A DNA stretch of 64,000 nucleotides from Candidatus Poribacteria bacterium (lineage in GTDB: Bacteria > Poribacteria > WGA-4E > WGA-3G). The position numbers and the translations under genes are program-made. This document shows positions 37,453 through 64,000 of this stretch, in pieces (positions within the stretch are counted from its first letter, which is position 1; every line of letters starts with the position of its first letter). The notes under the pieces were generated by a model, which saw only the letters and a program-made list of their open reading frames with translations, was not told where the DNA came from and did not search any database. The DNA lies in contig CAXXUA010000015.1 in NCBI GenBank assembly GCA_963663765.2, forward strand, positions 448,001-512,000, given 5' to 3'.

Positions 37453-37719
37453 TCAATAATCTTCATGTTAGTAAATTTAGTAAATATTTTCTTATTATGC
37501 ACCCTTTTCGATCTAATACTGTGTCTTTAATTATGAAGGTATCAATAATCTTCATGTTAGTAAATTTAGTAAATATTTTCTTATTATGCACCCTTTTCGA
37601 TCTAATACTGTGTCTTTAATTATGAAGGTATCAATAATCTTCATGTTAGTAAATTTAGTAAATATTTTCTTATTATGCACCCTTTTCGATCTAATACTGT
37701 GTCTTTAATTATGAAGGTA
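37453..37719 (+). repeat. 89-bp tandem repeat x3, each unit carrying the TGCACC-N17-GTGTC motif
   Basis: Units start at 37453, 37542 and 37631; motifs at 37498, 37587 and 37676. Confidence 0.9.
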
Positions 37720-43851: not shown

Positions 43852-44020
43852 TCAATAATCTTCATGTTAGTAAATATTTTCTTATTATGCACCCTTTTCG
43901 ATCTAATACTGTGTCTTTAATTATGAAGGTATCAATAATCTTCATGTTAGTAAATTTAGTAAATATTTTCTTATTATGCACCCTTTTCGATCTAATACTG
44001 TGTCTTTAATTATGAAGGTA
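43852..44020 (+). repeat. Promoter-bearing tandem repeat x2 (80 + 89 bp)
   Basis: Same unit as 37453-37719; motifs at 43888 and 43977. Confidence 0.88.
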
Positions 44021-47934: not shown

Positions 47935-47979
47935 GTTACCTATTTATTGTTGTCGTCACGATTTCTGATTGTAATAAAA

Positions 47980-48729
47980 ATGAAACATTTATTAACACTT
48001 ATCGGTTTCCTTGTCGTCATCGGGTTCAGTATAACTGTATTTTTTGTCCTCGGACGTTGGCGAGGTTCTGAAGCAATAAATATACCTAATGTCCCCGGAC
48101 AACAAATAGAAGGCACTGCTCAGGATATAAAAACGCAGAAACGCACACCGCGAAAGCAGAACCCTATCCAGAAAAGCAATGATAAGACCTCTAACGACCC
48201 AGAAGACTTCTACCGTGTTATTATTGAAAATAACATATTTCGCCCTCTGAACTGGAAACCGACACAACCAGAACCAACGTATACATTGCTTGGGACCGCT
48301 ATTACACCAGATGGTAATTCCGCTACTGCATACATAACTGAGCGGAAAACCAAACAGTTTTACGCGGTGAAGATAGGTGAGAAGATAGGTGATGCCGTCG
48401 TCAAAAAAATTCAGACGAAGCAGGTTACGTTAGACAAAAACGGTAAGATGTTGAGTCTTTCTATGGTTTCTGTCCCGTTTCTCAGCCGGACCGGCAGTCG
48501 TAGCAGTCCAGCCTATCGCGCACCACAGCCGCAGCCGCAAATGGTATCCAAAAGTAGCAACTCACACCGCACACAACCACGTACGACGAAGGACCAAGAA
48601 CGTCAAGCATGGCGCGATATGCAAAAGGAACGGATAGCAGAAATGAAAAAAATGGCTGAAAAACTCCGTACTACCTCAGAGGAGGAACGCAGACGGATGC
48701 GGGAACATCTTGAACAACAGAAACGTTAA
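47980..48729 (+). CDS. Type II secretion GspC/PilP-like protein
   Basis: N-terminal TM; NNIFRP..YTLLGT....ATAYI......Y.VKIGEKIG...VKKI....VTL..NGK...L matches the GspC HR-domain pattern. Confidence 0.6.
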   Translation: MKHLLTLIGFLVVIGFSITVFFVLGRWRGSEAINIPNVPGQQIEGTAQDIKTQKRTPRKQNPIQKSNDKTSNDPEDFYRVIIENNIFRPLNWKPTQPEPTYTLLGTAITPDGNSATAYITERKTKQFYAVKIGEKIGDAVVKKIQTKQVTLDKNGKMLSLSMVSVPFLSRTGSRSSPAYRAPQPQPQMVSKSSNSHRTQPRTTKDQERQAWRDMQKERIAEMKKMAEKLRTTSEEERRRMREHLEQQKR

Positions 48730-48763
48730 AATCCCAGATAAGACAAAACACAAAACATATCAA

Positions 48764-51274
48764 ATGAACCACTCTTTGCTCTCTCGTATCGGTGCATTAA
48801 TCTTGTTCGTCGCAATTATATTTATAACGTTTTGGATCCGTATACAGGGCGTAGAACGTATTCCAGATGGACAATTCACTGCAAATGATGCCTATCTCTA
48901 CTATTGGAACGCACAAAGAATCGCTGAACTCGGACATCTCCCTGCTATTGACGAACACCGTTGGCTGCCTCAAGGGAGAGACGTAAGTCAAACGCTTGCT
49001 TTTTACTCGTACATCTTGGTTTACGCGCACAAAATTATAGAACCTTTCTTTTACAAAGTGTCCCTCTATGATGTCCAACTTTATGCCCCTGCAGTCTGTT
49101 TTACGCTTGGACTCGGTATCTTAGCACTATTTCTCATCCGCACAGTCGGTTTTCTCTTTGCTTTTATTGTTACCGTGCTACTAGCAACGTTACCGGGTTG
49201 TGTGGATAGAAGTGCCGCTGGCTTTAGTGATAGAGATGCATGGTGTTGGTTATTAGGTACCCTTGCTGTTGTCTCTTATCTCTGGAAAGAAACGATACCT
49301 CTAAATCCCCCTGATAAGGGGGACAAAGGAGGTTCCACTCCTGATAAGGACAAAGACGATGTTATCCCTGTCAATGGAGACAAGGGTGATTCTATTTCTA
49401 TCACGTGGAGAAGATTGATCGGTAATTGGCGTAGGTACATTGCTACTGCCCTGTGCGGGTTTATCGTTTTCTTAGGCGGTCTTTCATGGGAAGGGTTCGG
49501 CGTATTTCTCTTAGTCATTCTCTTGACTGAGCTTTGGAAGTTCTGCACTACCGACACAGAAAAGGGTTTGCTTGAGTATGCAATATGGGTGGCAATGTTC
49601 GTACCATGGCTCTATCTCGCTTCACCTGTATATCAGCGCGGGCAGTTTTTCGCTGCACATCTTACTGCCCTTGTGTTGGTGCCACCGCTTGTTGTTCTCA
49701 GCCTCCGAGGAACGCGATATCTCCTGCTTCACTTCTTTAGACCGATCCGACCCCATGCAAGAAAACTCGCGGGACTTCTTACACTTCTGGCAATTGCTAT
49801 TGGTGGATTTTACGTTTTTTTCCAAGTTGATACATTTGCAAGTACTGCGCTCCCGTTTAGTGAAAACCGACTGATGCAACAGACAACCGAACTATACAAC
49901 CCAAGTTTTAGCTATTGGGTGTCACGATATGGTGGCGTGTTTGTTCTGGGCAGTATCGGATTAGTCGGTACATGCTTCCATTTGTGGAAATGGGAAGGTC
50001 TCCTTTTGGCTACTGCACTTTCCATGTTTTCATCCACTACTTTCCTGCAAATTCCACTAACAGGTTTAATAGGTGTTACTCTATGTGATGCGTTGTTCTT
50101 TGCTTCGTTAGGTCTTGCGGTCATCGGTATCGGTTTTGCGTGCATCCGAAAAGTAACTACCCAAAACGAATATGCCTTTATCGGAACCATCGTATGGTTT
50201 CTGTTATGGGTCGGTTTATCAAGGGACGCGTTACGTTACGACTTCTTTATCGGAGTTCCATTAGCAATCGGTACCGCAGTTATTCTGGTCCGTTCGATCA
50301 CGTCTAGAAAACTTATTCTCATCAGCAATAAGCCCATTCATCCTAAACTCATAACAGTCGCGTTTGCAATTGGCATGTTGGTTCTGCTTCTGTTTTTGCC
50401 ACCCGCCGGTGGCTTTGCAAAGAGTACAATCCCAGCTGCCAGTACACGTCCCTTGGTACCTGGGAGGGGGAGTTTGCCGCAGGCATATACATGGATGAAG
50501 AACAAACTGCCCGAAGATACAACGGTGATCGCAGCAAACTGGGGATACGGCAGTCAACTCAACGTTTTCGGTGGTGTAAAAACCATCGTTGACCAGGACC
50601 ATTTTATCCAACACTGGATATATCTTTACTATCGGCACGTTTATTGCGCGCAATCTGAACAAGAAGCTTTAGAATTCCTCAAAACACACAATGCAACCCA
50701 TCTGATGTTAATCGCCAGTGACCTAATACCGGGGGCAAGGAAGGTTTCCTTTGTCGGTAGTGATGAAGACTTTGATAGACACTTTGATCTGCATGAGTTA
50801 GCGTTGCTGCCTACTACCCTTGGAACACAGTATACTCTTGCACCAAGAAGACATCAAGAGCGTTTCATACCACCGACAACCTTAACTTCTATTGATATAG
50901 TTGGGACAGATGCTGAGAATTTGTCTGTGACTGCCCGTTTCAAAGATGATGAAACAATCCAACTTCCTTATATTGCTTATGTTGGAAGTCAACAGGTTAT
51001 CCCACAGCAAACAGTTGATACTGAAAAAGGTGGGGTTGTGCTATTATTTGATTCACACAAAATCCTTCGCAATAGTTTTTTTATCAACGATATTGGTTGG
51101 AACAGTCTCGCTGTCAAGTTATTTATACGCGGTGAACACTCTGATGCTTTTGAAAACGTGCATACAATCACCCCACAAGGTATAGATGTCCCACCTGAAA
51201 TCAAAATATGGAAAATCAATTATCCACCAGACATCAAAAAGAAGCAGAAATACCTTGAAACAAATTTCCAATAA
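48764..51274 (+). CDS. STT3/PglB/AglB-like oligosaccharyltransferase, paralog 2
   Basis: FTANDAYLYY, RSAAGFSDRD, RDALRYDF; AANWGYGSQL at the WWDYG position; clearly paralogous to 40659-43124. Confidence 0.75.
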   Translation: MNHSLLSRIGALILFVAIIFITFWIRIQGVERIPDGQFTANDAYLYYWNAQRIAELGHLPAIDEHRWLPQGRDVSQTLAFYSYILVYAHKIIEPFFYKVSLYDVQLYAPAVCFTLGLGILALFLIRTVGFLFAFIVTVLLATLPGCVDRSAAGFSDRDAWCWLLGTLAVVSYLWKETIPLNPPDKGDKGGSTPDKDKDDVIPVNGDKGDSISITWRRLIGNWRRYIATALCGFIVFLGGLSWEGFGVFLLVILLTELWKFCTTDTEKGLLEYAIWVAMFVPWLYLASPVYQRGQFFAAHLTALVLVPPLVVLSLRGTRYLLLHFFRPIRPHARKLAGLLTLLAIAIGGFYVFFQVDTFASTALPFSENRLMQQTTELYNPSFSYWVSRYGGVFVLGSIGLVGTCFHLWKWEGLLLATALSMFSSTTFLQIPLTGLIGVTLCDALFFASLGLAVIGIGFACIRKVTTQNEYAFIGTIVWFLLWVGLSRDALRYDFFIGVPLAIGTAVILVRSITSRKLILISNKPIHPKLITVAFAIGMLVLLLFLPPAGGFAKSTIPAASTRPLVPGRGSLPQAYTWMKNKLPEDTTVIAANWGYGSQLNVFGGVKTIVDQDHFIQHWIYLYYRHVYCAQSEQEALEFLKTHNATHLMLIASDLIPGARKVSFVGSDEDFDRHFDLHELALLPTTLGTQYTLAPRRHQERFIPPTTLTSIDIVGTDAENLSVTARFKDDETIQLPYIAYVGSQQVIPQQTVDTEKGGVVLLFDSHKILRNSFFINDIGWNSLAVKLFIRGEHSDAFENVHTITPQGIDVPPEIKIWKINYPPDIKKKQKYLETNFQ

Positions 51275-51421: not shown

Positions 51422-54328
51422 TCATCTAACAGAACGTATGGTAGCGGTCCTGGCTTCTGAAGGGTTTTCTTCAAGCGATGTGTGAAATATTCCGCGTTCT
51501 TCGGTACCGATGTAAAGTTTATCTTGGCTGGCAGAAAGAGATATAACCTTATTAGGAATATTACTTAAGATTTGTTCCCAACTACCGCGAGGATCTAAAC
51601 TGTAAACACCCGTACCGCCAATACCATAAAATTTTGATCCGTTCATAGCAAATTTATCTATGACCACAGATGTTCCGTTATGATCCGTTATGATACGCCA
51701 ATGTTCCCCAGTTTGTGAAATCATCGCACCTTTATCAGTTGCAACACAGACCGTCGCCCCTAAAAATGTAATATCCTTAATTTGGGAATAATTTGATGGA
51801 ATATTTGGTGTAATGTCTCGCCAACTTTTTCCACCATCAATGGATTGGTATAACTTACCATCCCGTTTACCTACGTAGACAACTTCCACTGAGACTGCTA
51901 ATTTAAATCCTCTGTCCAAACCTTTATTAATAAATTTGTTCATATCTGTTAATCCCGTGTCTATCACTTCTGTGTTACCGAGTGTCCATTTGAAAAGTCG
52001 CCGCATGTATTCTATGTAGAAAGTTTCACCGCTCACAGCGATTGCTCCTAATTTCTGTTTTCTTTCAGTATTTGATAAATTTATGTTGTTCAAATCCTCA
52101 CTGTTTGTCCACAGTGTTGGGTCATAAATTCTATGAACCATTGAGAACACACCATCGTTAGTTCGTAAACGAAAAATGCGTAGTTCCTTTACTTGAGGTA
52201 TAATTCCGTAAAGAACGTTGTTGGCAATTATCAACTTTGAGTCAGTAAAATGATTATCAAGTTGATCTCCGATACTTGTTAGTTCTGGCGTAAACTCGCC
52301 ATAATCAATGCGAACTTCTTCCCACGAGTTTCCATTATCAGCAGATTTGTAAAATCCTGTTCCGGTATATACATAGAGCTTGTTATCAAAAACAACTATA
52401 TCTCGTACTTTGGTTTTCACCATACCATTTGTAAATGGATGCCATGAGTCACCACCATCAGTTGTGCGGAGAATACCTGAAGTACCCACCTTGTAAAAAG
52501 TATTATCGTTTACTGCTAAGACTGTAGAATAAGTTGATGGAAGTAAGTTTATATTAAGTCCGAGGTTTGTCCAAGTTTGACCGTTATCTTTCGATCTGAA
52601 CGTTGGAATACCTAATACTAAAAGCGTTTTATCAACAGCAGAAATCTTTGTAGGACCCATAAACAACGGTCCTGTGTTAACATCTATATCTTTAGGTGTT
52701 ATTTCGCGCCACGTAGAACCTAAGTCGACTGAATGGTAAATCTTGCGATACTTATTGTTGGGTGAGTTTGATTCCAAATATTCAGGACTAAGAAAATCTG
52801 AACCTGTCACGACATACAGATTGTTGTCAAAAACTGCCATTGAGTGAACAGTATTTTGTGGGTCCACTGACAATCGATCCCACAATCCAGAATTTAAGCG
52901 ATAAAGACCTTGGTTTGTTCCAATAAAAACAGAGTCGCTAATCTTAGCAACTGCAGAAATTTTCTTTCCTATCAACCCATTATTCAGAGGTATCCACTTT
53001 TTACCAGCATCAGTTGATCGAAAAACGCCTTCATTTCTCAAAGCAAGGTACATTAAAAAGTTTTCTTGTGTATTACCTCTTATTACTAATCCAACAGCAT
53101 CTCCGTTTGGTCGAGCACAGAATTTATTCCAAGTCTCGCCATCATCCTTTGAAGCCAATATCTCATTCGTATTGACAGAATAGATAACGCCACGATGTTC
53201 AGTTATGGGTGAGCGATAAGTGTTAATAGGTATATTTGTATTGATATTCATCCATGCAGTATTATCTTTCGTTAACCTATAAATACCTGTTCTTGAAACT
53301 GCGTGGATGTTATTATCTGAAGTCGCGAAGATATTAGATAAAGGAGACCCTTCTGGTCCATTTGCTTGTGTCCACTGAACAGCTGATGAATTAAGCGTGT
53401 TTTCTTGAACATTGGCTGCTAAGTCGGCATCAGAAGCAATTGTACCAGCCCCTTCATTTTTAATGTTGGTAACACTTCTTCCAATATTGTTTCGTACAGC
53501 TGGGTTCGAAACAATATCAATGTGTATAGGTGATTCCACTATTTCAACAGTCGGTTCAGAGAGGGCGTCAAAATTATACAGCATCTGAAAGTGCGCAATA
53601 TATTGGTTCATTGCTCCAAGTAATAACATAACCAACACAGCAGCTGTACCTAAAGCTGCCCACGGTAGCACAGGTTTTGCTACGGGTGGCGTGGGTTTTA
53701 TATCAGCAATTTTCTGCATGATATTCTCTGTTAGATCAGTAGATAATTGCACACCACCAAGATGTTCGGTGATTAAAAGTTCTCCTTCTGCTTTCAAACG
53801 GTTTCGCGCCCGTCGAATCTTGCTCTTAATTGTGTTCACGGATACACCTAAGGTTTTACCTATATCCTGTGCAGTCATTTCGCCGAGATAATAGAGGGAC
53901 ATTACTGTACGTTCACTCTCTGGTAATTTCTTCAACAACGCTTTGACGATTGTGCTGTTGTTCTCGGCAGCTTCTTTTTCCCGTTGTTCCGATTCATAAT
54001 GGTTATAAAAAGTCTTTTCTATTCCTTCCACTGCAGTATCCTCTATAGATTGTATTGGGGTTTTGTTCCTTTGAAGCCAATTGATACAAAGCCGTGTCGT
54101 GATAACATATATCCATCCATCAAATTGTTTTGGATTTTTAAGTGTAGATAGTTTTTTATATACTTGGATAAAGGTATCTTGGGTAATTTCTTCAGCAATG
54201 TGGTAGTCCCCAATCTTTTTCCAAGCGATCGCGTGAACTTTCTTTTGGTACTTTTGCACTAAAAGACTAAACGCTTCTTCTTCACCATTCAAAATTCTTT
54301 GAATTATTTGAACATTACTTTCTTCCAT
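51422..54328 (-). CDS. ECF sigma factor fused to a TM helix and an extracytoplasmic BNR/Asp-box beta-propeller
   Basis: sigma2 (AEEITQDTF..F.GWIY.I..R.CINW) and sigma4 (LPESER..YYL.EMT..DI...LGVSVNTIKSKIRRAR); TM PWAALGTAAVLVMLLLG; repeated SxDxGxxW. Confidence 0.9.
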   Translation of the reverse strand: MEESNVQIIQRILNGEEEAFSLLVQKYQKKVHAIAWKKIGDYHIAEEITQDTFIQVYKKLSTLKNPKQFDGWIYVITTRLCINWLQRNKTPIQSIEDTAVEGIEKTFYNHYESEQREKEAAENNSTIVKALLKKLPESERTVMSLYYLGEMTAQDIGKTLGVSVNTIKSKIRRARNRLKAEGELLITEHLGGVQLSTDLTENIMQKIADIKPTPPVAKPVLPWAALGTAAVLVMLLLGAMNQYIAHFQMLYNFDALSEPTVEIVESPIHIDIVSNPAVRNNIGRSVTNIKNEGAGTIASDADLAANVQENTLNSSAVQWTQANGPEGSPLSNIFATSDNNIHAVSRTGIYRLTKDNTAWMNINTNIPINTYRSPITEHRGVIYSVNTNEILASKDDGETWNKFCARPNGDAVGLVIRGNTQENFLMYLALRNEGVFRSTDAGKKWIPLNNGLIGKKISAVAKISDSVFIGTNQGLYRLNSGLWDRLSVDPQNTVHSMAVFDNNLYVVTGSDFLSPEYLESNSPNNKYRKIYHSVDLGSTWREITPKDIDVNTGPLFMGPTKISAVDKTLLVLGIPTFRSKDNGQTWTNLGLNINLLPSTYSTVLAVNDNTFYKVGTSGILRTTDGGDSWHPFTNGMVKTKVRDIVVFDNKLYVYTGTGFYKSADNGNSWEEVRIDYGEFTPELTSIGDQLDNHFTDSKLIIANNVLYGIIPQVKELRIFRLRTNDGVFSMVHRIYDPTLWTNSEDLNNINLSNTERKQKLGAIAVSGETFYIEYMRRLFKWTLGNTEVIDTGLTDMNKFINKGLDRGFKLAVSVEVVYVGKRDGKLYQSIDGGKSWRDITPNIPSNYSQIKDITFLGATVCVATDKGAMISQTGEHWRIITDHNGTSVVIDKFAMNGSKFYGIGGTGVYSLDPRGSWEQILSNIPNKVISLSASQDKLYIGTEERGIFHTSLEENPSEARTATIRSVR

Positions 54329-54556: not shown

Positions 54557-54584
54557 GACACAGTTTTTGGTCAAAAAGGGTGCA
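54557..54584 (-). promoter_or_regulatory. ECF-type promoter motif upstream of the ECF sigma gene (autoregulatory candidate)
   Basis: Minus strand TGCACC ctttttgaccaaaaact GTGTC ttaat. Confidence 0.75.
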
Positions 54585-54691
54585 AAAAAGAAAAAAAGAT
54601 TATAAAAACATAAAAATAATATTTGTTTGTGGTGGCAAAATAATATAATAAAGCAATTGATACTATCAGTCAAGTTCAAAGGTTCAAAGAA

Positions 54692-55666
54692 CAGGGTTAT
54701 TCAGTTTCATAATTTTTGGATTTTTCCAAAAAGAACCCCGCGGTAGGAGCGACCTCCCGGTCGCGATTTTCTCAGAAAACGACTAAAATGCTAAAAACTA
54801 AATAACCCTGGTTCAAAGGCAGGGTTATTCAGTTTCATAATTTTTGGATTTTTCCAAAAAGAACCCCGCGGTAGGAGCGACCTCCCGGTCGCGATTTTCT
54901 CAGAAAACGACTAAAATGCCAAAAACTAAATAACCCTGGTTCAAAGGGGTGTGTAAAGTTTTTGCACAGAGGTACTAACTTTTGTTCTCTTTAGTCCCGT
55001 AGGGACGCAATGTTTATAGAAAGACGTTATCACATCCCCTCTCTTTAGTTCCGTAGGAACGACATAGAAGGATAAACATATCGTCCCTACCAAATCAACG
55101 CCAAATGCGCCAAATCAACGGTATGAATGCCATTAAGGCATTCCCCGTATGGCATTTGTCGGGACTAAAAAGACGTGGGGATATGTATTTCTATAAACAT
55201 ATCGTCCCTACGGGACTGAAGAATATGGTTAATATTAACAATATTTCTTTATATTGACACCTAATGAAGTTTGAGAATCAAAATCGGCAGTTGAATTCGT
55301 AGGGGTTGGGTTCCCCAACCCGTTTGGTTATTAAGTTTGCGTAGATCGGGCGTGGCAACCACGCCCCATAGGCGTCAATTTAAGGATTTTCACCTCTTGT
55401 GGGAGGGGTTTTCAACCCCGATTTTTTAGTGCATTTCCGCTCAAATTGAGGTTGAAATCCCCTCCCACAAGAAAAATGACAACAATATTTTCTTAAATTG
55501 ACGCCTATGGGGTGTGGCAACCACGCCCCTACGAATATACAACTTGAACGTCAAAACTCATTATGGCTCTGTGTCCCGCAATCTCTCATTTAATCAGTTG
55601 GGGCGGGCACAGAGCCCCGCCCTACAATGAAGAATGAGTAGTTTGTGCAAAAACTTTACACACCCC
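54692..55666. repeat. Tandem family-A MITEs followed by a nested family-B element
   Basis: Two about 128-bp family-A units separated by GTTCAAAGG direct repeats; then ggggtgtgtaaagtttttgcaca ... tgtgcaaaaactttacacacccc enclosing taggcgtcaatttaag / cttaaattgacgccta and other palindromes. Confidence 0.75.
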
Positions 55667-55847: not shown

Positions 55848-55875
55848 TGCACCCTTTCCACCTTTTCACTGTGTC
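55848..55875 (+). promoter_or_regulatory. ECF-type promoter motif upstream of the peptide operon
   Basis: TGCACC ctttccaccttttcact GTGTC atgaat. Confidence 0.72.
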
Positions 55876-56004
55876 ATGAATTATGGAAGCTGATTTACCT
55901 AATGACAAAACGTAAGTTTTGGACATTGTCAATAGGAAACTTCCATAGTATTAGCACAGTCATTAACGGACGAAATGACCGGAAAAGAAAGGAGGTGAAC
56001 CCTA

Positions 56005-56253
56005 ATGTATAAAAGATTACGCAATAAAATTAGCGAATTTATCAACTCTGAAGAAGGAAAAGTAGGAGTCAAAACTTCGTTATCATTTGGTTTGGTAGGC
56101 GGAGGATTACTGCTAATGCAAACAATGTTTCCTCTCGCTGCTAAGGCGGGATATGAGTGTTGGAGTAATGATAATTGTGCAGATGACGAAAAATGTGTTT
56201 TTTTTCAAGATGAGTATACAGGTGAATGGTACTCTGAGTGTGTTGATGTCTAA
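56005..56253 (+). CDS. 82-aa precursor peptide: Flp-pilin-like leader + hydrophobic segment + 4-Cys acidic core
   Basis: Strong RBS AAAGGAGGTG; MYKRLRNKISEFINSEEG|KVGV..., AAKA|GYECWSNDNCADDEKC...C; followed by a hairpin. Confidence 0.8.
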   Translation: MYKRLRNKISEFINSEEGKVGVKTSLSFGLVGGGLLLMQTMFPLAAKAGYECWSNDNCADDEKCVFFQDEYTGEWYSECVDV

Positions 56254-56272
56254 CACGTGATTAAATCATTTC

Positions 56273-56309
56273 AAATGGTTCCGCTGCTTTGAACAGTGGA
56301 ACCAATTTT
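56273..56309 (+). terminator. Probable intrinsic terminator after the peptide gene
   Basis: GGTTCCGCTG-ctttgaa-CAGTGGAACC followed by AATTTT. Confidence 0.6.
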
Positions 56310-56412
56310 ATTGTGTTAAATGAAAGCACGGAATTTGTTTATCAATGTAAAATACACAACGTTCTTAATGATAGGTATGTAATAAATATTCTGGAAACTA
56401 TGGTGAAATTTA

Positions 56413-56638
56413 GAGTTATTTACACATTCCGGATTTGTAGGAGGGAACTCCGATTCCCGATTACGAGTTATTTACACATTCCGGATTTGTAGGAGGGAAC
56501 TCCGATTCCCGATTACGAGTTATTTACACATTCCGGATTTGTAGGAGGGAACTCCGATTCCCGATTACGAGTTATTTACACATTCCGGATTTGTAGGAGG
56601 GAACTCCGATTCCCGATTACGAGTTATTTACTCCTACA
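56413..56638. repeat. 52-bp tandem repeat x4 of a REP-like half-element
   Basis: Identical units (core TGTAGGAGGGAACTCCGATTCCCGA), closed by a single CTCCTACA. Confidence 0.9.
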
Positions 56639-56692
56639 GGTAGGGTGTACAATTATTTCAATAATTCACCATAAAAGGAGAAACGCTTCAAA

Positions 56693-57694
56693 ATGAAACG
56701 AACATTTGTGTATATTATATTAGGGACTATGTTATTCAACGGCCTATTATTTAGTAACGTACAAGCTGCTGAACATTCTGTTCTTTCCTTTCTTTCTAAC
56801 GAGAAAGGGGATTTTGACATATTCATCATAGATACTGACGGTAGAGTCCGTGAACGGATTGTAACGGATGCGATGAGAAAAAGTTCGCTCACATGTTCTC
56901 CTAAAGGTTATCTTTTTGCTTATTCATCAAATGAAAACGCTAATCTTGATATTTATAAAATGGATATTAGGAATAAAATATCAATACAGTTGACACTGCA
57001 TCCTGAGAGGGATCTATGGCCATCTTGGTCCCCTAATGGACAATGGATTGCCTTTGTCTCTGATCGGGAAGGAACTCAAGATATTTATAGAATGGATGCT
57101 GACGGTTCCAACTTAATAAGATTAACTGACCAAGGACACAACGGGATACCCTCTTGGTCTCCTGATAGTCGGTTGATCGCTTTTGATTCTGATAGGGAAG
57201 AAAATCATTCTATCTATAGCATGAATGCTGATGGTGGACAGTTAAAACAACTGACAGAGGATCTACCACTGGGACCAGGTTGTACGTGGTCACCAGATGG
57301 AAAACAGATTGCCTATGCTGCAGGAGATTTTAGCGCAGAAGGTGTTGATATTTTTACAATTGATGTCAATGAAAAAAATATCACCAAATTAACTAACATG
57401 GGGAGAGGAATCCGATCTGGTAATCCCGTATGGTCACCCGATGGTGACTTGATTGCCTATTCAATTGTGGAGGTCGAAGAGTGGCCAAACCCCGCTAACG
57501 GATTCAGACTTATTTTTGGCGACAGCACAATTTATCTCGTGGATAGCACAGGTAATGGTGATGAAAAACCGCTTAAAGAGACAACGGGTCTTTCCAACGA
57601 TCATGTGCCTGTCTGGATACCAAAAGGTTTTTTCTCAGTTTCACCAGATAAAACTAAACAGATAATCACCTGGGGAAAACTCAAACAACCATAA
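56693..57694 (+). CDS. Secreted TolB-like PD40-repeat protein with C-terminal VSP....TWGKLK motif
   Basis: Signal peptide; repeated P.WSPDG..IA(F/Y); ends FSVSPDKTKQIITWGKLKQP. Confidence 0.88.
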   Translation: MKRTFVYIILGTMLFNGLLFSNVQAAEHSVLSFLSNEKGDFDIFIIDTDGRVRERIVTDAMRKSSLTCSPKGYLFAYSSNENANLDIYKMDIRNKISIQLTLHPERDLWPSWSPNGQWIAFVSDREGTQDIYRMDADGSNLIRLTDQGHNGIPSWSPDSRLIAFDSDREENHSIYSMNADGGQLKQLTEDLPLGPGCTWSPDGKQIAYAAGDFSAEGVDIFTIDVNEKNITKLTNMGRGIRSGNPVWSPDGDLIAYSIVEVEEWPNPANGFRLIFGDSTIYLVDSTGNGDEKPLKETTGLSNDHVPVWIPKGFFSVSPDKTKQIITWGKLKQP

Positions 57695-57734
57695 GTATTA
57701 GAAAACCAACCCAACTATAGTTTTAACATAAAAT

Positions 57735-58868
57735 ATGTCTTACTACGAATACTATCTCATTATTCTAACGCTTATTTTTTGTGGATACGCCTGTTACACA
57801 GATATAAAAACACAGAAAATTCGTAATATTTGTTCTTTCGGACTTCTTTATGCTGGAATACTCAGCCAACTTATGGCGTGGTACCTTGGCAAAACAACAC
57901 CGTTTAACATATCCGGGCTGTTTCTTGGAAGTGGAATCGCAGCATTTACTTTTTATTGGTTCGGTATTTTCTCACCAGGGGATTCCAAGCTCTTTTGGGG
58001 TCTCTGTATGATTTTTCCACCGCCACTTTTTGCGCTCTTGAATGGAACAGCAAGTTTTCCACCATTGATACTTGCACTTAATATCATCATTCCTTACACA
58101 ATAGGAGTCCTGGGATATCTACTGTTAAAATTATTTATGGGACACAATAAGTTGGAGTTCCTAAGTAATCTCCTTTTGAAAACCCTTCAAAAAGAGATAC
58201 TTTTACAGCGAATCTTCAACTTATTGCTTTTAATAGGTATAGGTTCTACGATTACTTATATTTCTAAATTGTTTGAATGGGAAATAAATAGACCCTTACA
58301 GATCGGTTTGGTCTTAATGACATTTATGTCAGCACGAAAATTGCTGTCACGTTTGCCCAAAACGCAGATCTATTATGCGGTAATTGGATTCGCTTGTATT
58401 TGGATTTCATTAAAAGCAAGCACATCAATAACAGGAGTTATCTACAGTATTGCTTTTTTCTTATTTTTATATTTTGTCATTTTCGTCATTGCTAAACAAT
58501 TGGTTCTTGGATTAGCAATGACGTTGGAGCGAAATATTGATATAGAAAACCTAAAAATCGGTATGATCCCAGCAGAGCAAATCATTCAGAAAACACTTCA
58601 AGACGGTGTTGCCTGTTATGAAAAACAACAAGCAACATTTTCAAGTGGAATAATGGATAACATTATTATTTCACCCAGTGCTACCGGTCTTAGTAAGGAA
58701 GAGATAGCAGAATTGAAAAAACTGGCAGATCAGGGGGAGTTCATAAAGTATAAAAACAAAATCAAAATCCAACCTGACATTTGCTTTGCACCAGTTATCA
58801 CTGTTGGGGCATTACTAACTATTCTCTGCCAAGGTCCGTTTTATCTCAAATTAGCACAAATATTTTAA
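57735..58868 (+). CDS. Prepilin peptidase (A24 family) with extra TMs and a FlaK/EppA-like C-terminal region
   Basis: Both catalytic Asp motifs YTDIKTQKIRN and PGDSKL; LKIGMIPAE; C-terminal ICFAPVITVG. Confidence 0.82.
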   Translation: MSYYEYYLIILTLIFCGYACYTDIKTQKIRNICSFGLLYAGILSQLMAWYLGKTTPFNISGLFLGSGIAAFTFYWFGIFSPGDSKLFWGLCMIFPPPLFALLNGTASFPPLILALNIIIPYTIGVLGYLLLKLFMGHNKLEFLSNLLLKTLQKEILLQRIFNLLLLIGIGSTITYISKLFEWEINRPLQIGLVLMTFMSARKLLSRLPKTQIYYAVIGFACIWISLKASTSITGVIYSIAFFLFLYFVIFVIAKQLVLGLAMTLERNIDIENLKIGMIPAEQIIQKTLQDGVACYEKQQATFSSGIMDNIIISPSATGLSKEEIAELKKLADQGEFIKYKNKIKIQPDICFAPVITVGALLTILCQGPFYLKLAQIF

Positions 58869-58914
58869 AGTTATAAAAGGGAGGGGATGGTGGATTATAC
58901 AATTAAATCTACAT

Positions 58915-59203
58915 TCTGAGTTGTAGGAGGGAACTCCGATTCCCGACTATCAAAGTTTTTGGTCGCGATCTGAGTTGTAGGAGGGAACTCCGATTCCCGA
59001 CTATCAAAGTTTTTGGTCGTGATCTGAGTTGTAGGAGGGAACTCCGATTCCCGACTATCAAAGTTTTTGGTCACGATCTGAGTTGTAGGAGGGAACTCCG
59101 ATTCCCGACTATCAAAGTTTTTGGTCGCGATCTGAGTTGTAGGAGGGAACTCCGATTCCCGACTATCAAAGGTTTTGGTCACGATTCAGAGATCGCTCCT
59201 ACA
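58915..59203. repeat. 54-bp tandem repeat x5 of the same REP-like half-element
   Basis: Units at 58915, 58969, 59023, 59077 and 59131; same core as the 56413 array; closed by CTCCTACA. Confidence 0.9.
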
Positions 59204-59238
59204 ATTAAGATGTCCAATTATTTCCATATTTCACCATA

Positions 59239-61107
59239 ATGTATATTATGAAACGTACAATCTTTGTTCTAATCGTATTAACTATAGTTGTTACTTTACC
59301 GCCTTTTTACACACAATGGGTAGAATCTCAAAGGTTAAAACAGATACAAACAATTAAGCATCAAGCACGACCAATTTTGGGGCAACCGTTGCAACAGGTT
59401 TTATCTGAACTCAAAAGAAACGAACCGCCTTCAACGGTTATTCTATATACTGGTAACACAAAAAGCCATCTTGAACCGTGCGGGTGTTACCAAGAACAAG
59501 CTGGTGGATTATCAAGGCGGGCTGAAGTTATAAAACAAATTCGACAATGTGGATATCCAACAATTGTCGTTGATGCCGGAAACATATTCGACGGACAAGA
59601 GAAAATAGACGTACAACGCGCCAAAACGAATATGAAAGCATTAGCAGAAATGGACTACGCAACAGTCGCACTGAGTCACACCGATCTCACTTACGATGAC
59701 GATTATCTTATACAACAAAAGAATGTGGCTACGTTCCCATTCTTAGCACCCAATGAAACACAAACGGACTTCACAGAACCTTATGTTACCAAACAAGTTG
59801 GTCAACATACCATCGCATTTGTCGCAGGGAAGGCATCGAAACAAGCCGTATCTGAAGCGGACATTATTGTGGCGTTAGGCAATCCCCGAAAACTTGACAA
59901 TATTGACGTGATAATTCTACCAAACGAAGTAGAAGCATTGGGATCTGGTACCCAGACATTATATGTTGGTTCTAAAGTTGAAGGTAAGACATTAGGTGTA
60001 TTGGCACTGTGGTTAGATACAAATGGTGAAATTACAAATCATTACACAGCGCACATAGCATTGACTGGTGAAGTCGGTGAATCGGAATTAATCCGCAAAA
60101 TGTTAACCGAGTTTTACAAAAGCACAGCCGAAGAAAATAAAAAGTCTGGTCTACCACTCTTTGCCGAACAAGCATTAGAAAAACAGAACAGCGAGTATAT
60201 CTCAGCAAATACTTGCAAAGGTTGCCACGAACAAGAATATCTACAATGGTCAGCAACACGCCACGCTTTCGCTTATCAAACGCTTCTAAAAAAGGAACGT
60301 TACTTTGATCCGAATTGTGTCGCTTGCCATACAACAGGATTCGGTTATGCTACAGGTTACCAGATAGGGGATCAAGACTCAACGCTCAAAGGCGTGCAAT
60401 GTGAAACTTGCCACGGTCCAGGCAAACAACATGCAGGCAATCCCAAGAAAAGCAATATCCGCAGTGGTAAAGATATGTCACTTTGTCTACAGTGCCATGA
60501 TGCAGAACATTCACCAGGCTTTGCAGATGTGGTCACATTGCATACAAAAGATGTCGACCATAGCCGAGCACCGATGAACTTAGAAGAACTTTTAAAATCC
60601 CGAATAGAGCGAATGGGAAAACCAACACTTGAACTCTTTGTAATGAGTTACTGCCCTTTCGGTATCCAAGCAGAAGAAAAACTCATCCCGATTGTCAAGA
60701 AATTCGGTGACAAAATCGACTTCAAACTGCGGTTTATTGCACAAGAAAAGGATGAACTTTCTTCACAAGACATAACACCTTTTGTCAGTTTGCATGGTTA
60801 TCCAGAAGTAGCAGAAAATATGCGGCAGCTACTCATCGCACGAGAATATCCAGAGCAACTTTTAGTTTATCTCCTATGTCGTGGTAAAAAGTTGAACAAA
60901 AGTTGGGAAGATTGTGCAAAGAAACTCGGTATTGATGTGGAAAAAATAAATCGTTTGTTTAATACACCTGAGGCAGAGCAGCTGTTCAGGGAAAACATCA
61001 AACGTGCTGCTGAATTAGGTATAAAAGCATCACCAACGATTTTTGTAGATGGACAAAAATTCCCAACGAGTCAACTACTACGTGCAAGCGGAACACCTTG
61101 CCAGTAA
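59239..61107 (+). CDS. Fusion: UshA-like metallophosphoesterase-fold N-domain + tetraheme c554-like cytochrome + DsbA/thioredoxin-like domain
   Basis: LEPCGC...GGLSRR and VDAGN; four CxxCH (CKGCH, CVACH, CETCH, CLQCH); LFVMSYCPFG ... GIKASPTIFVDG. Confidence 0.82.
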   Translation: MYIMKRTIFVLIVLTIVVTLPPFYTQWVESQRLKQIQTIKHQARPILGQPLQQVLSELKRNEPPSTVILYTGNTKSHLEPCGCYQEQAGGLSRRAEVIKQIRQCGYPTIVVDAGNIFDGQEKIDVQRAKTNMKALAEMDYATVALSHTDLTYDDDYLIQQKNVATFPFLAPNETQTDFTEPYVTKQVGQHTIAFVAGKASKQAVSEADIIVALGNPRKLDNIDVIILPNEVEALGSGTQTLYVGSKVEGKTLGVLALWLDTNGEITNHYTAHIALTGEVGESELIRKMLTEFYKSTAEENKKSGLPLFAEQALEKQNSEYISANTCKGCHEQEYLQWSATRHAFAYQTLLKKERYFDPNCVACHTTGFGYATGYQIGDQDSTLKGVQCETCHGPGKQHAGNPKKSNIRSGKDMSLCLQCHDAEHSPGFADVVTLHTKDVDHSRAPMNLEELLKSRIERMGKPTLELFVMSYCPFGIQAEEKLIPIVKKFGDKIDFKLRFIAQEKDELSSQDITPFVSLHGYPEVAENMRQLLIAREYPEQLLVYLLCRGKKLNKSWEDCAKKLGIDVEKINRLFNTPEAEQLFRENIKRAAELGIKASPTIFVDGQKFPTSQLLRASGTPCQ

Positions 61108-61179: not shown

Positions 61180-61207
61180 TGCACCCTTTTCGGTCTAAAA
61201 CTGTGTC
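61180..61207 (+). promoter_or_regulatory. ECF-type promoter motif
   Basis: TGCACC cttttcggtctaaaact GTGTC tttaat upstream of 61313. Confidence 0.75.
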
Positions 61208-61312: not shown

Positions 61313-61675
61313 ATGATAAAAAGACCTTTGAAAATAATACGCGCCTATCAAGGTGAATTCTTACTCACAGTCATTGTTATGGTCACAATTTTCAGCTTTA
61401 TGACGCTCTTCGGACATGGGTTATCTGATGCGACTCTTTCAAACGAAGCCCCATCTGGTCTGATACCCATAATCAAGCCTGAGTGCATAACAAGACAGGA
61501 CTGTGAAAAACCATACATTATCTGTCCAACCCCAAGAATATCGTGTCCCCAAAAGACGGAAAAAATTGGTAACCATATTATTCCTGACCGGGGGATCATC
61601 AACCCCGCATTAACCGAACCTTGCCAACAAGACACATTAAGTTCGCAAGGAGACACACAAATAAGGAGTTATTGA
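61313..61675 (+). CDS. Small exported Cys/Pro-rich hypothetical protein
   Basis: AAGGAG RBS, N-terminal TM, five Cys. Confidence 0.65.
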   Translation: MIKRPLKIIRAYQGEFLLTVIVMVTIFSFMTLFGHGLSDATLSNEAPSGLIPIIKPECITRQDCEKPYIICPTPRISCPQKTEKIGNHIIPDRGIINPALTEPCQQDTLSSQGDTQIRSY

Positions 61676-61676
61676 C

Positions 61677-62417
61677 ATGACAAAACAATTACACTGGGCA
61701 ATAGGCGGACTCGCGCTTCTTATAGTCGGTTTCGTGGCATTACAATTATATCTGTATGTTGACATAAAACGGTTCAAAGAGGAAATTGCCGGTCCAGAAC
61801 CCAAAACGGAAACAGAAACCGAACAACTCCCCGAACAGGTGCAAGTGCCTGAAGAGGATAACAGACCACCATCGCCAGATTACGGAGGTAAGTATGAGTG
61901 GCACGGGGATCATTGGCACAGAGTTGATCAACCACCCGTACAACCTGAACCAGATCCAAAAAGACATACCGGTCCTTTGACATACCACAAGGAACTTTTA
62001 GATAAGCATCCTGTTGAGGCACTGCGGCAACAGGCACGGGAATTAGGGCATTGGAGTGCTGAACATATTCCACCGTTTCCGCCAGATGACAATGAGGCAG
62101 CAGAATTCGCACGAGAACTGTATCTCTACAGATACCATAAGTGGACAGGACAGACCGACACCCCTGACTATCTGAAGGCTCTAGAGGCACAGAGTGTAAT
62201 ATTTCATGCACTTAAGGACCGGGAAAATAATTCCCCCTGGGAACTTGCCCGATACCACGATTTGATGAAATTAGTATGGCCCGATACGACGACTGACCCA
62301 TTTCCACACGTCCGTCATCCGACAACCTTCAAAGAGGGGATCAACCCATTAACAGCCCGTCCTTTACTCCCTTTTGAACTTGAGATGTCAAATCTAAAAA
62401 CAGAGGAAAACGACTGA
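61677..62417 (+). CDS. N-anchored hypothetical protein with YEWHGDHWH motif
   Basis: AAGGAG RBS, N-terminal TM, Pro/Glu linker, helical C-domain. Confidence 0.7.
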   Translation: MTKQLHWAIGGLALLIVGFVALQLYLYVDIKRFKEEIAGPEPKTETETEQLPEQVQVPEEDNRPPSPDYGGKYEWHGDHWHRVDQPPVQPEPDPKRHTGPLTYHKELLDKHPVEALRQQARELGHWSAEHIPPFPPDDNEAAEFARELYLYRYHKWTGQTDTPDYLKALEAQSVIFHALKDRENNSPWELARYHDLMKLVWPDTTTDPFPHVRHPTTFKEGINPLTARPLLPFELEMSNLKTEEND

Positions 62418-62434
62418 TACACAAAGGAGATATC

Positions 62435-64000
62435 ATGCAAAGAATATTCACAGTCCTCACACTAACTTGTTTAACACTCACGTTTTTTGTGTCGTACGCC
62501 GCATACGCTGACTTTAACGGTGATGTTGATGTCGCAGAAAAGAACATAACAACCGACAAGGATGATGCTGATACACAATATAATGTTATGCAGAATGCCA
62601 ATATCCTATATCTTCTGGCGAAATCGGAATATGAGGCAAACGAAACAAAAATTAAAAGAGGTAAGAATGTCACCGCAGTCAAATTGCTGGCTGCAACCGT
62701 GTCTGTGTATGTAAGCGGTACTCTGACTGCACCCGTAGCCGTGAGTACCCTTGTAGATATGCTGGACTTGTCAGCGTCGATAGACGATTCAACAACGCTC
62801 CTTGACGCGTATGAAACCGCGATCTCCAGAAAATACAACGAGGTAGAACAGTTTGATATTCTCTCGATTGCGTACAATATCACGTATGACATCTATATTG
62901 AGGTGCTCGCTGAACATACAGGATGGACTGAATCCTATCTCTCCACGTACATTGAAAACGAATATAATCGTAGACAGGGGATACAACATAACGGTAGTAC
63001 TACTCCCAGTGATAAGCATGGGATCGAGGGGAAAAAAGAATGGGGCGAATATGATGATACATTCCCCTCATATCCTTGTGAAGGTCCCTGTACAGTGAGT
63101 TTCATGACACCAACGAGTGAACACGTAATACAATGTGGTTCCTCCGACGATCCTGGCACTAGTAAGGTTGGAGGATGCTGGTTTCGTTACCATTCTTGCG
63201 ATATCTATGAGAAAGCAATACACACACCAGGACGATGTGAGGGAAAGCTGTGGGATGAGGCATGGACTCGGGGACCTAATGGAGAATCTGTCCCATTTTG
63301 GAGGTTAATTGACTGCGGCGAGTGGACGCGAGTGTGTTTACTCCACGTGGGCGGTCATGCCTTCCCTCTTACTCCAGGTGACAACAACTTCAATATGTTT
63401 CACTTCCTTAATATCTATAACGATGATGGCACTATACAAACCTCTACACAGGCGTACAACAACCTAATCATAGAAGAGCAGACGATCCCATCAAATTCAA
63501 ATCAACTCTGTTCAGCCTGTAATGAAACTTATACATCCAGTGAGACAAGCGAGTGCTCAACTTGTTCAAGTGATGGAGACGAGTCAGCATCTACCGATGG
63601 TTCTTCCGATTGCGCCTCATGTACGAGTACGAACGAGTGTTCTGCGTGCTATACAACTGAGACATCCACTCTTGCAAGTGAAGCCAACACGGAGACTGTG
63701 TCCACAAGTACATCAACGCCTACCGCGCCCGGTTTATATCCTGTGGGGGCATCTTTAGCGACTGTGAACGGTCAAGAGATGCCTTCATTAGCACCGGGTG
63801 ACTCACATACTGCCAAGTTGATTACGAAATCAGGTGGATATGCAATAGTGCATTGGTATTTATTGCCACCTGGGGATAGTAGAACTTACGGTGATGAGTT
63901 GTTTCCGACAACTTACGCGCAAGGTTCTACTGTTGAGACAGAGGTAACCTTTAGTTTTACGTTTCCTTCTAGTGCCGTAGGTGTGTATAAACTCACAGCA
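62435..64000 (+). CDS. Secreted Cys-rich, Ser/Thr-rich hypothetical protein; 3' partial (absent from the ORF track)
   Basis: AAGGAG RBS, then MQRIFTVLTLTCLTLTFFVSYAAYA; by manual translation the frame is open to the window end; CEGPC, CSAC, CSTC, CASC and CSAC motifs. Confidence 0.8.
   Translation, partial: MQRIFTVLTLTCLTLTFFVSYAAYADFNGDVDVAEKNITTDKDDADTQYNVMQNANILYLLAKSEYEANETKIKRGKNVTAVKLLAATVSVYVSGTLTAPVAVSTLVDMLDLSASIDDSTTLLDAYETAISRKYNEVEQFDILSIAYNITYDIYIEVLAEHTGWTESYLSTYIENEYNRRQGIQHNGSTTPSDKHGIEGKKEWGEYDDTFPSYPCEGPCTVSFMTPTSEHVIQCGSSDDPGTSKVGGCWFRYHSCDIYEKAIHTPGRCEGKLWDEAWTRGPNGESVPFWRLIDCGEWTRVCLLHVGGHAFPLTPGDNNFNMFHFLNIYNDDGTIQTSTQAYNNLIIEEQTIPSNSNQLCSACNETYTSSETSECSTCSSDGDESASTDGSSDCASCTSTNECSACYTTETSTLASEANTETVSTSTSTPTAPGLYPVGASLATVNGQEMPSLAPGDSHTAKLITKSGGYAIVHWYLLPPGDSRTYGDELFPTTYAQGSTVETEVTFSFTFPSSAVGVYKLTA

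Follow-up and report, generated by a model that had tools for sequence, protein, structure and literature searches.

A 64,000-nucleotide stretch of DNA from a Candidatus Poribacteria bacterium (assembly GCA_963663765.2, contig CAXXUA010000015.1; hereafter the window, G000:C15:448001-512000 in a genome of 6.35 Mb, 15 contigs and ~40% G+C) carries a conserved, previously unannotated system made up of a Cys-rich mini-protein, a beta-propeller, an archaeal-type A24 peptidase, a heme-linked thiol oxidoreductase and an extracytoplasmic function (ECF)-type promoter. On balance, and with modest confidence, we read the window locus as the minimal, single-cassette form of a system that pairs exported disulfide-rich small proteins with cognate periplasmic binders. 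We found a consistent pattern across the peptide family, conserved synteny and genome co-occurrence of the cassette genes, the residues of a genuine GxGD protease, and no pilus genes around the cassette. An earlier note on this DNA had proposed that pilin-processing machinery was repurposed here to mature a disulfide-bonded secreted peptide. The relatives, the co-occurrence and the lack of pilus genes speak for that part of the proposal; the likeness to peptides that are made by the ribosome and modified post-translationally (RiPPs) that it added is not established here, and it missed the role of the propeller. The sequence features it described, from the peptide gene with its leader and core to the downstream genes, are all present where it placed them. 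The features of the locus are as follows.

51422-54328, minus strand: ECF sigma factor with a membrane segment and a BNR/Sortilin-type propeller (Sigma70_r2/r4 at residues 22-178; repeats at 528-877)
54557-54583, minus strand: promoter-like motif GCACCC-N16-CTGTGTC, with the start of the sigma gene 228 nt downstream
55849-55875, plus strand: promoter-like motif GCACCCTTTCCACCTTTTCACTGTGTC, upstream of the peptide gene
55990-55997, plus strand: Shine-Dalgarno sequence AGGAGGTG, 7 nt before the ATG; identical in 9/9 orthologous upstream regions
56005-56253, plus strand: peptide gene, an open reading frame (ORF) of 82 aa
56005-56058, plus strand: residues 1-18, basic/amphipathic N-region ending in F12-x3-E16-x-G18, with the proposed A24 site after G18
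56059-56148, plus strand: residues 19-48, with K19 (+1), K23 (+5), the hydrophobic segment and the A-K-A site
56149-56253, plus strand: residues 49-82 and stop, the acidic four-Cys core
56276-56304, plus strand: terminator-like hairpin and T-run, 3' of the peptide gene
56693-57694, plus strand: secreted PD40 (TolB-like) beta-propeller (PF07676, E 1.3e-30)
57735-58868, plus strand: FlaK/EppA-type A24 (GxGD) aspartyl protease with an Arc_PepC region (D23 at 57801-57803, D83 at 57981-57983)
59239-61107, plus strand: membrane-anchored UshA-like/tetraheme/DsbA-like fusion of 622 aa (Pfam and NCBIfam matches)

After the peptide gene, the genes for the PD40 protein, the A24 peptidase and the UshA/tetraheme/DsbA fusion follow in that order on the same strand, and the sigma gene is divergent. 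Pfam matches and the CxxCH and YCPFG motifs agree with the earlier description of a co-oriented propeller, a peptidase with both catalytic Asp and a tetraheme protein with a CPFG thioredoxin fold. Three sponge RNA libraries contain single contigs of ~200 nt that are 96-98% alike and come from close relatives; they need not reflect transcription. Two of them align with 57385-57584 in the PD40 gene and the third with 57943-58151 in the A24 gene; the peptide gene has no covering contig in these three libraries, and this missing cover carries no weight.

A conserved leader precedes hypervariable Cys-rich cores

The peptide gene has the promoter motif (55849-55875), strong ribosome binding site (AGGAGGTG) and terminator hairpin (56276-56304) that had been ascribed to it. 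Translation of the ORF likewise gives the acidic core that had been read from it: 34 residues after A-K-A (GYEC...VDV), spaced C-X5-C-X5-C-X14-C, of which 10 are acidic and 1 is basic. The peptide has no Pfam family at E <= 0.01, and in NCBIfam its one match, to the HxsA3 N-terminus, is sub-threshold. A database search with it returned 71 proteins, 70 of which are clear relatives at ~60-84% identity; none of the 71 has a Pfam domain, and the sole source name among them is 'hypothetical protein, Candidatus Poribacteria'. A profile built from 39 database relatives gave 286 matches in the protein database, and the best 120 of these 286 carry that same name alone. The nearest Atlas clusters of the peptide come only from Poribacteria as well. 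Judged from these searches and from a comparison of bacterial loci that covered Poribacteria, the cassette system is found in this analysis only in that phylum.

The 20 loci that we fetched contain 54 peptide copies detected by hidden Markov model (HMM), 52 of them full length and all 52 with an ATG start. The leader, of ~48 aa, is conserved, and the cores, of 24-50 aa, are hypervariable: mean pairwise identity is 0.62 in the leader versus 0.28 in the core (52 copies, 1326 pairs). Most cores have four Cys (35/52), the remainder six (15/52) or five (2/52). The expectation that relatives would combine a conserved leader with a hypervariable Cys core therefore held, and by its sequences the family displays the conserved-leader/variable-core feature of RiPP precursors. 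In a diverse alignment of 45 copies, which includes nine divergent copies picked by eye beside divergent peptidase paralogues, F12, E16, G18, C52, C58 and C79 are invariant even in clades that are ~25% identical, and C64 is at least 90% conserved. The residue after Gly18 (+1) is K or R in 49/52 copies, and +5 is K in 51/52; the window peptide has Thr at +6. Further along, the first Cys comes after an exact A-x-A in 46/52 copies, under a permissive site-picking rule, with P or G at -8 to -4 in 47/52 and A at -3 in 52/52.

The AlphaFold model of the peptide has a helix at residues 3-15, an unstructured stretch at 16-24 and a core with a beta-hairpin at a predicted local distance difference test (pLDDT) score of 84-88. 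A fold search with the core, for a cystine knot or another known mini-protein fold, gave as its best trimmed match a tomato peptide (2hlg), a weak one (Z 2.1, root mean square deviation [rmsd] 1.8 A over 31 residues, 29% identity).

The cassette genes co-occur and keep their order

Of 176 genomes in the phylum, 69 match the peptide profile, some many times over (at most 18 copies in one genome, often clustered), and the A24-like profile and the redox fusion each match 71/176. By genome, peptide and A24 occur together in 62, peptide only in 7, A24 only in 9 and neither in 98. For the A24 gene and the redox fusion the counts are both in 67, one only in 4 and 4, and neither in 101. In all 8 same-genus loci the order is sigma-BNR (divergent), peptide, PD40, A24 and redox fusion, with identities of 66-73% for the peptide, 69-76% for PD40, 72-79% for A24 and 76-80% for the redox fusion. 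The earlier note had asked whether the peptide co-occurs with and adjoins the A24 and c554-DsbA genes, and whether its neighbourhood is conserved; both are so. Within the window's genus, each gene is present in just 10 of 39 genomes. This patchy joint presence argues for joint gain or loss and makes the pairing more than just a clade trait, with the qualification that relatives are not independent samples.

Among the nine genomes counted as 'A24 only', three (G012, G022, G024) have divergent leaders that the HMM missed, and one genome (G083) is without an A24 gene solely because its contig ends there. In the sister genus, peptide and PD40 pairs form tandem arrays around a single pair of A24 and redox-fusion genes. 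Two further loci retain peptide and propeller arrays: in L065 (G160) the A24 gene is deleted to a 27-residue remnant, and L064 (G173) has no A24 gene and a redox fusion reduced to a fragment. These may be decaying loci, or they may reflect peptidase-independent use of the peptides.

The peptidase is of the archaeal FlaK/EppA type

When 1.84 billion representative proteins were scanned in full, 251 proved related to the A24-like protein at E <= 0.001. Among 36 aligned diverse relatives, some only 19% identical, D23, G82, D83 and K85 are invariant, comprising the catalytic Asp pair and the GD-x-K motif; the second-Asp motif in the window protein reads S-P-G-D-S-K-L. The protein matches PF06819 (Arc_PepC) at 33.2 bits, and of its distant relatives 34/34 match PF01478 at E <= 0.01 and 21/34 match PF06819/Arc_PepC. 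Its model (pLDDT 88.3) superimposes on FlaK (3s0x_B) with Z 13.1 and rmsd 3.8 A over 174/186 residues, and the next match has Z 7.5. By residues and by modeled fold, the peptidase is a true GxGD protease, whose activity on the peptide is a prediction. The genome encodes a separate canonical A24 protein on contig C5.

One distant relative lies in an Altiarchaeota metagenome-assembled genome, and next to the relatives in Methanobacterium are 5-6 small genes whose products have class III signal peptides. The Arc_PepC relatives, the fit to FlaK and the Methanobacterium neighbours together indicate that the protein has the architecture of archaeal prepilin peptidases. Its identity to the archaeal relatives is ~22-25%, and look-alikes of the A24/Arc_PepC architecture in Bacillota, Methanobacteriota and Elusimicrobiota are leads only. 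In one Methanobacterium sp. locus (L067, 9276-13372), the run of small genes after the peptidase relative encodes class III signal peptides of the type …G|Q-x-S, as in typical archaeal pilin operons. Three loci (L054, L055, L059) carry a divergent A24/Arc_PepC paralogue (~30% identity) whose neighbours encode phosphoglucomutase, nucleotidyltransferase and methyltransferase and, in L055 only, also a family 4 glycosyltransferase (GT4); this paralogue may have another substrate.

The FlaK/EppA peptidases, with their archaellin and pilin substrates, are thus a close point of comparison: they share the combination of A24 and Arc_PepC, the structural match to 3s0x and, in Methanobacterium, a position beside small substrate genes. 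The Poribacteria system differs in its bacterial host, in its presumed hypervariable Cys-rich substrates and propellers, and in having no linked filament machinery.

Is the peptide a substrate of the peptidase?

Cleavage after G18 is a prediction for which the data offer the invariant Gly of the presumed substrate. In a class III signal peptide the hydrophobic segment directly follows an invariant Gly at -1; here the Gly is invariant, and 7 mostly polar or basic residues come between it and the hydrophobic core. Several observations weigh against coupling the peptide to the peptidase in this way. The hydrophobic segment begins ~7 residues past G18, with K at +1 and +5, and in known A24 substrates it comes directly after the Gly. 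Removal of the leader by signal peptidase I would, it seems, make an A24 cut redundant. The window protein scores 22 bits against PF01478, under the cut-off of 26.5. A Foldseek search of its model against the PDB gave no match at E <= 0.001 and placed FlaK at rank 31 (probability 0.84), and a PDB sequence search gave 0 matches at E <= 10. Three genomes (G139, G160, G173) keep peptide copies with no A24 detectable at E <= 1e-10, some A24 paralogues have no nearby peptide gene (L054, L055, L059), and shared ancestry inflates the co-occurrence counts.

These points bring in another explanation, in which the peptides are ordinary Sec-exported small proteins with a long N-region, processed by signal peptidase I alone, and the neighbourhood is a shared envelope regulon; the A24-like protein would then act on another substrate or clear the leftover signal peptide. 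The canonical c-region described above fits such proteins, as do the peptide arrays in genomes without A24, the A24 paralogues without nearby peptide genes and the occurrence of the same promoter motif ahead of unrelated operons (see below). Set against this, F12, E16 and G18 are invariant across leaders that are ~25% identical, and a plain Sec N-region needs none of them. The genome counts (62, 7, 9, 98) and the adjacency in every same-genus locus also tie the peptide to the peptidase, and divergent peptidase paralogues lie beside correspondingly divergent leaders. We consider export by Sec alone improbable, while giving it real weight, and continue with the reading in which the A24 peptidase processes the peptide.

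No pilus machinery accompanies the cassette

The window has no Tad ATPase, secretin or platform gene, as had been noted; the sole strong matches in the genome to the T2SSE ATPase, the T2SSF platform and a secretin are on C4 at 957-975 kb. Across the 32 peptide/A24 loci (521,649 bases) we found no T2SSE ATPase and no canonical PilD/A24 homologue. Flp_Fap (PF04964) has no match in the whole genome at E <= 0.1, and a Caulobacter control does match. The homologs are accordingly not ordinary Flp pilins in tad loci. The upstream genes were considered as a hidden pilus or type II secretion apparatus, and this was rejected: the only hint is a sub-threshold T2SSC match on the ORF at 47947-48729, and the upstream ORFs read as membrane glycosyltransferase-like and unknown proteins.

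The peptide could still be an atypical minimal pilin of the type IV or Flp-like kind, from which A24 removes residues 1-18 and in which the hydrophobic segment is kept as the N-terminal helix. In variants of this idea the disulfide-bonded part would form a head on a filament, or the helix would be a membrane anchor that tethers the PD40 protein. The FlaK/EppA type of the peptidase and the class III small genes beside its Methanobacterium relatives would suit a pilin, and the type IV filament/type II secretion cluster on C4 could in principle assemble the peptide. The F-x3-E-x-G stretch also resembles a Flp leader. Of the proposed Flp-like leader, this stretch, Lys at +5 and A-x-A are present as described, and the Flp_Fap match is missing from the peptide as from the genome. 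Flp pilins carry the motif G/xxxxEY, in which the cleavage Gly is followed by Glu (+5) and Tyr (+6); the peptides have Lys at +5 in 51/52 copies, and the window peptide has Thr at +6. In 46/52 copies the hydrophobic segment is separated from the head by an exact A-x-A, the 32 loci are without T2SSE or PilD homologues, and a genome may have as many as 18 hypervariable copies along with a propeller for each. All of this disfavors the minimal pilin that the earlier note had offered as an alternative, and we regard it, with its variants, as very unlikely.

The peptide does retain a likeness to Flp/Tad prepilins, which have a long leader of the form hydrophobic-x-x-acidic-acidic-x-Gly followed by a hydrophobic segment and, in TadV/CpaA, a dedicated A24 peptidase without a methyltransferase domain. 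It departs from them in having no PF04964 match, Lys at +5 and no Tyr at +6, and an A-x-A site and Cys-rich domain after the hydrophobic segment, and the 32 cassette loci depart from tad loci in having no tad ATPase, platform or secretin.

Each core may bind its own PD40 propeller

A same-strand PD40 gene lies downstream of 45/52 peptide copies at a median gap of 220 bp, and 2 of the 7 exceptions are at a locus edge. We modeled the complex of the core (residues 49-82) with the mature propeller (residues 26-333). It reached an ipSAE interface score of 0.80, compared with 0.01 for the best of 3 controls, a mark that 58/80 solved complexes and 2/110 mismatched pairs reach in calibration. At least 85% of contacts are common to the runs, and the partner has a pLDDT of at least 81. 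In the model the core contacts residues of most blades and so would sit on the propeller face. The PD40 protein had been passed over as a bystander. That view does not hold, given its place as a partner beside 45/52 copies and as a predicted binder at ipSAE 0.80.

The predicted contacts are also more variable than the rest of the propeller, with an entropy of 0.95 versus 0.48 among orthologues (p 3e-4) and 2.83 versus 1.66 among paralogues (p 3e-8). The pairing has points against it as well. Face loops vary in any propeller family, and the entropy comparison is one without a surface-matched control. The complex modeling used our own alignments, so the calibration holds only roughly, and solved complexes of TolB with ligands exist, a likeness that may partly explain why the model passes. 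Covariation between core and propeller identities is weak (Mantel r 0.27, reached by 0/2000 permutations) and within loci there is none (r 0.10, p 0.5). The core is, moreover, fairly conserved in the window's genus (60-84% overall identity), unlike in typical polymorphic toxins. We read the overall r of 0.27 as pairs inherited as units; it is not proof of co-evolution. Taken together, binding of the core to its PD40 propeller is supported as a prediction of the complex model.

The PD40 protein was also considered as a TolB. Its nearest NCBIfam model is TIGR02800 (TolB), to which it scores 156.8 bits, where the cut-off is 343.15, and only over profile positions 203-383 of 418, so only the propeller half matches, under the cut-off, and the assignment was rejected. 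TolB with its Pal and colicin TolB-box ligands is nevertheless a near comparison. Both are periplasmic PD40 propellers, and in the cassette, by the complex model, most blades would contribute contacts to a small ligand held on the face. Unlike TolB, the PD40 protein has no TolA-binding N-domain, is multi-copy and has a hypervariable face.

A heme-linked redox fusion accompanies the peptidase

The 622-aa protein matches cytochrome c554 (E 1.7e-15), DSBA (E 6.7e-9) and Thioredoxin_4, and has four CxxCH motifs and YCPFG. The fusion of a tetraheme cytochrome to a thioredoxin fold is therefore as the earlier note described it; overlooked was an N-terminal UshA-like domain of ~270 aa with an LEPCGC motif, which matches NF041198 at 212.9 bits, under the 275 cut-off. 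In 20 homologues LEPCGC is present in 20/20, the heme motifs are conserved, and a C-terminal GTPC is present in 17/20. The thioredoxin motif is C-(P/H/S/R)-(F/Y)-(G/A) in 20/20, so the second Cys of the C-x-x-C of DsbA is absent. We infer that the fusion may oxidize the cores, with electrons leaving via the hemes.

The nearest known systems are DsbA/DsbB oxidative folding and the NF041198 UshA-like PCGU (seleno)proteins. The fusion resembles the former in its DSBA/Thioredoxin_4 domain and the latter in a UshA-like C-G-C/U domain joined to a c554-type multiheme region. It differs from DsbA/DsbB in its C-x-x-G/A motif and in having fused hemes instead of a quinone-linked DsbB partner, and from the NF041198 proteins in scoring under the cut-off and in carrying an extra DsbA-like domain outside that model.

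Fragments of the fusion gene occur elsewhere. G000:C6:172766-173056 is a pseudogene fragment (residues 513-609, with two stop codons) that lies 114 nt from a copy of the promoter motif, of which contig C6 has copies at 169428, 172652 and 174662. Short 3'-end fragments lie beside peptide copies in L039, L042, L048 and L064. These pieces hint at a possible route of cassette duplication.

An ECF sigma factor and a shared promoter motif

The sigma-BNR gene adjoins the peptide gene in 8/8 same-genus loci and in L044, L048, L064 and L065, and its product is likely the regulator of the peptide cassette. The motif (T)GCACCC-N16-CTGTGTC(TTTAAT) has 8 copies in the window against 0.15 expected from shuffles, located at 37499-37703, 43889-44004, 54557-54583, 55849-55875 and 61181-61207. 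Each is on the same strand as the next downstream ORF, namely those at 37811 and 44112, the sigma gene, the peptide gene and the ORF at 61313. The DNA upstream of the peptide gene varies among nine orthologous loci, with the motif block as its conserved part. A loose pattern matches the genome 44 times versus 12 in a reversed-sequence control; ~20 of the matches are of the extended type, 12 of those in C15 at 485-520 kb, and further copies are on C3, C5 and C6. The promoter motif that had been described as the peptide gene's own is thus one of 8 window copies.

ECF sigma factors commonly autoregulate. By analogy, the motif copy in front of the sigma gene points to an ECF regulon under autoregulation.

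Comparison with RiPPs and other peptide systems

Loci in other genera add one or two GT4 glycosyltransferases of ~565 aa, an S-adenosylmethionine (SAM) methyltransferase and a phosphoglucomutase. The N-terminus of one such GT4 protein matches NF040492, a radical-SAM peptide maturase N-terminus (E 6.7e-6), and weakly PqqD (E 0.025). The ~565-aa neighbors were considered as radical-SAM maturases, and this was rejected because Pfam identifies them as GT4 glycosyltransferases. These loci allow an account in which the system is a true RiPP pathway: the N-region would be recognized by enzymes with a RiPP recognition element (RRE), the core glycosylated or methylated in the cytoplasm, and A24 would be the leader peptidase, with the window's genus a degenerate form that has lost its tailoring enzymes. 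The methyltransferase and phosphoglucomutase genes of those loci and the leader/core pattern fit the account. The PqqD and SCIFF matches are far under their cut-offs, however, and a GT4 beside sugar-nucleotide genes may serve envelope glycans. The window genome has no close homologue of those GT4 proteins (best 28.5% identity over 221 aa, contig C4), and a Pfam scan and the GT4 search found no tailoring enzyme in the window locus or the genome, the redox fusion aside. Since the RRE-fused GT4 and the methyltransferase are found in relatives only, the RiPP reading is plausible for the family and not established at the window locus. We think a complete RiPP pathway of this kind quite unlikely. 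The RiPP-like reading of the earlier note accordingly stands in its leader/core pattern and lacks, in this genome, the tailoring enzyme.

RiPP and bacteriocin precursors such as prochlorosins, with conopeptides as an analogy, share with the cassette peptides a conserved leader, a hypervariable core, a Cys framework and many copies; a terminator after the precursor gene and, in cassette relatives, an RRE-like domain on a tailoring enzyme add to the likeness. They differ in that the cassette has a membrane/Sec-type leader segment, a candidate GxGD intramembrane peptidase and a propeller gene per precursor, and in that the window locus has no tailoring enzyme beyond the redox protein.

Membership in HxsA was also rejected. 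Four leaders match the N-terminus of NF038309 (HxsA3) at E 0.0037-0.14 and 12-17 bits against a cut-off of 65. The report on the HXS antiphage system describes the effector HxsA as periplasmic with non-canonical N-terminal processing (PMC13128918). The weak leader similarity and this mode of processing in a periplasmic protein are points of likeness. The cassette differs in having neither His-x-Ser repeats nor HxsB/HxsC/HxsD radical-SAM genes. PADLOC assigned 0 families to 5 cassette proteins. The NHLP proteusin 'srp' RiPPs are a different family (bioRxiv 10.1101/2023.06.09.544420). The literature searched held no paper on the cassette system, and supplementary gene-cluster tables could include the locus.

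A model for the cassette

In the model that we favor, the neighboring ECF sigma/BNR fusion would drive the peptide operon via the shared promoter motif. The 82-aa precursor, to go by its basic N-region and hydrophobic segment, would insert in the inner membrane with its N-terminus inside, where the FlaK/EppA-type A24 protease would cut after Gly18 of F-x3-E-x-G at the cytoplasmic face. Signal peptidase I would then probably cut at A-x-A, freeing the 34-aa core. The CGC/tetraheme/DsbA-like fusion would oxidize the four core Cys and could pass the electrons to its hemes. The folded core, as the complex model suggests, would dock on the face of its own PD40 propeller.

In sister genera the pairs are amplified and diversified, with the greatest variation in the core and in the contact face that the model predicts. 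The pair is therefore most likely a specificity-coded couple of ligand and binder. Our best guess is a secreted toxin-like or signaling effector with a periplasmic immunity or receptor protein. More tentatively, and with doubt as to whether all parts hold together, the system may represent a new class of bacterial ribosomal peptides, with a GxGD leader peptidase for a bipartite leader (a recognition motif and a Sec-type segment), RRE-glycosyltransferase tailoring in most lineages, a heme-wired bypass of DsbB and propeller-matched cores.

The known substrates of A24 prepilin peptidases are filament subunits and a small number of surface proteins in archaea. Their role would be broader if they also served a conserved, multi-copy family other than pilins, all the more so one with hypervariable, disulfide-rich cargo and a propeller gene to match each peptide gene. 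The hosts are sponge symbionts that have not been cultivated and about whose secreted effectors little is known, and if the new-class reading is true these symbionts would have a specificity-coded repertoire of peptides and binders directed against competitors or towards the host. A code of recognition between peptide and protein, tractable and with as many as 18 pairs to a genome, would follow, and the parts are small enough for work in E. coli. The CGC/tetraheme/DsbA-like fusion, in turn, suggests periplasmic disulfide formation with electrons leaving via hemes.

Other features of the window

Three intergenic tandem repeat arrays, at 54681-54947 (128 nt x2.1), 56413-56631 (52 nt x4.2) and 58915-59185 (54 nt x5.0), have a common GTAGGAG..CCCGA palindromic core. 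In DNA contigs of a source-like run, the array at 56413-56631 has a depth of 400-750 versus ~4.5 in the flanking genes, which indicates that the repeat unit is highly repeated.

Beyond the redox fusion, the ORF at 61313-61675 (120 aa), which is preceded by a promoter-motif copy of its own, has a pilin-like N-terminus (…YQG followed by EFLLTVIVMV…) and a Cys-rich outer part. The next ORF (61677-62417, 246 aa) has a paralogue on contig C3 that also has the promoter motif, and from 62435 to 64000 a long, open-ended ORF encodes a predicted secreted protein in which Cys, Ser and Thr abound, with runs of the form CSAC…CSTC…CASC. On the other side of the cassette, the ORFs at 40659-43124 and 48710-51274 encode paralogous multi-pass membrane proteins of ~820-854 aa with no Pfam match at 1e-3. 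Both share an NWEYG/NWGYG stretch, which we take to resemble the WWDYG motif of oligosaccharyltransferases, and at the start of both operons stand a copy of the promoter motif and a small gene for a methyltransferase.

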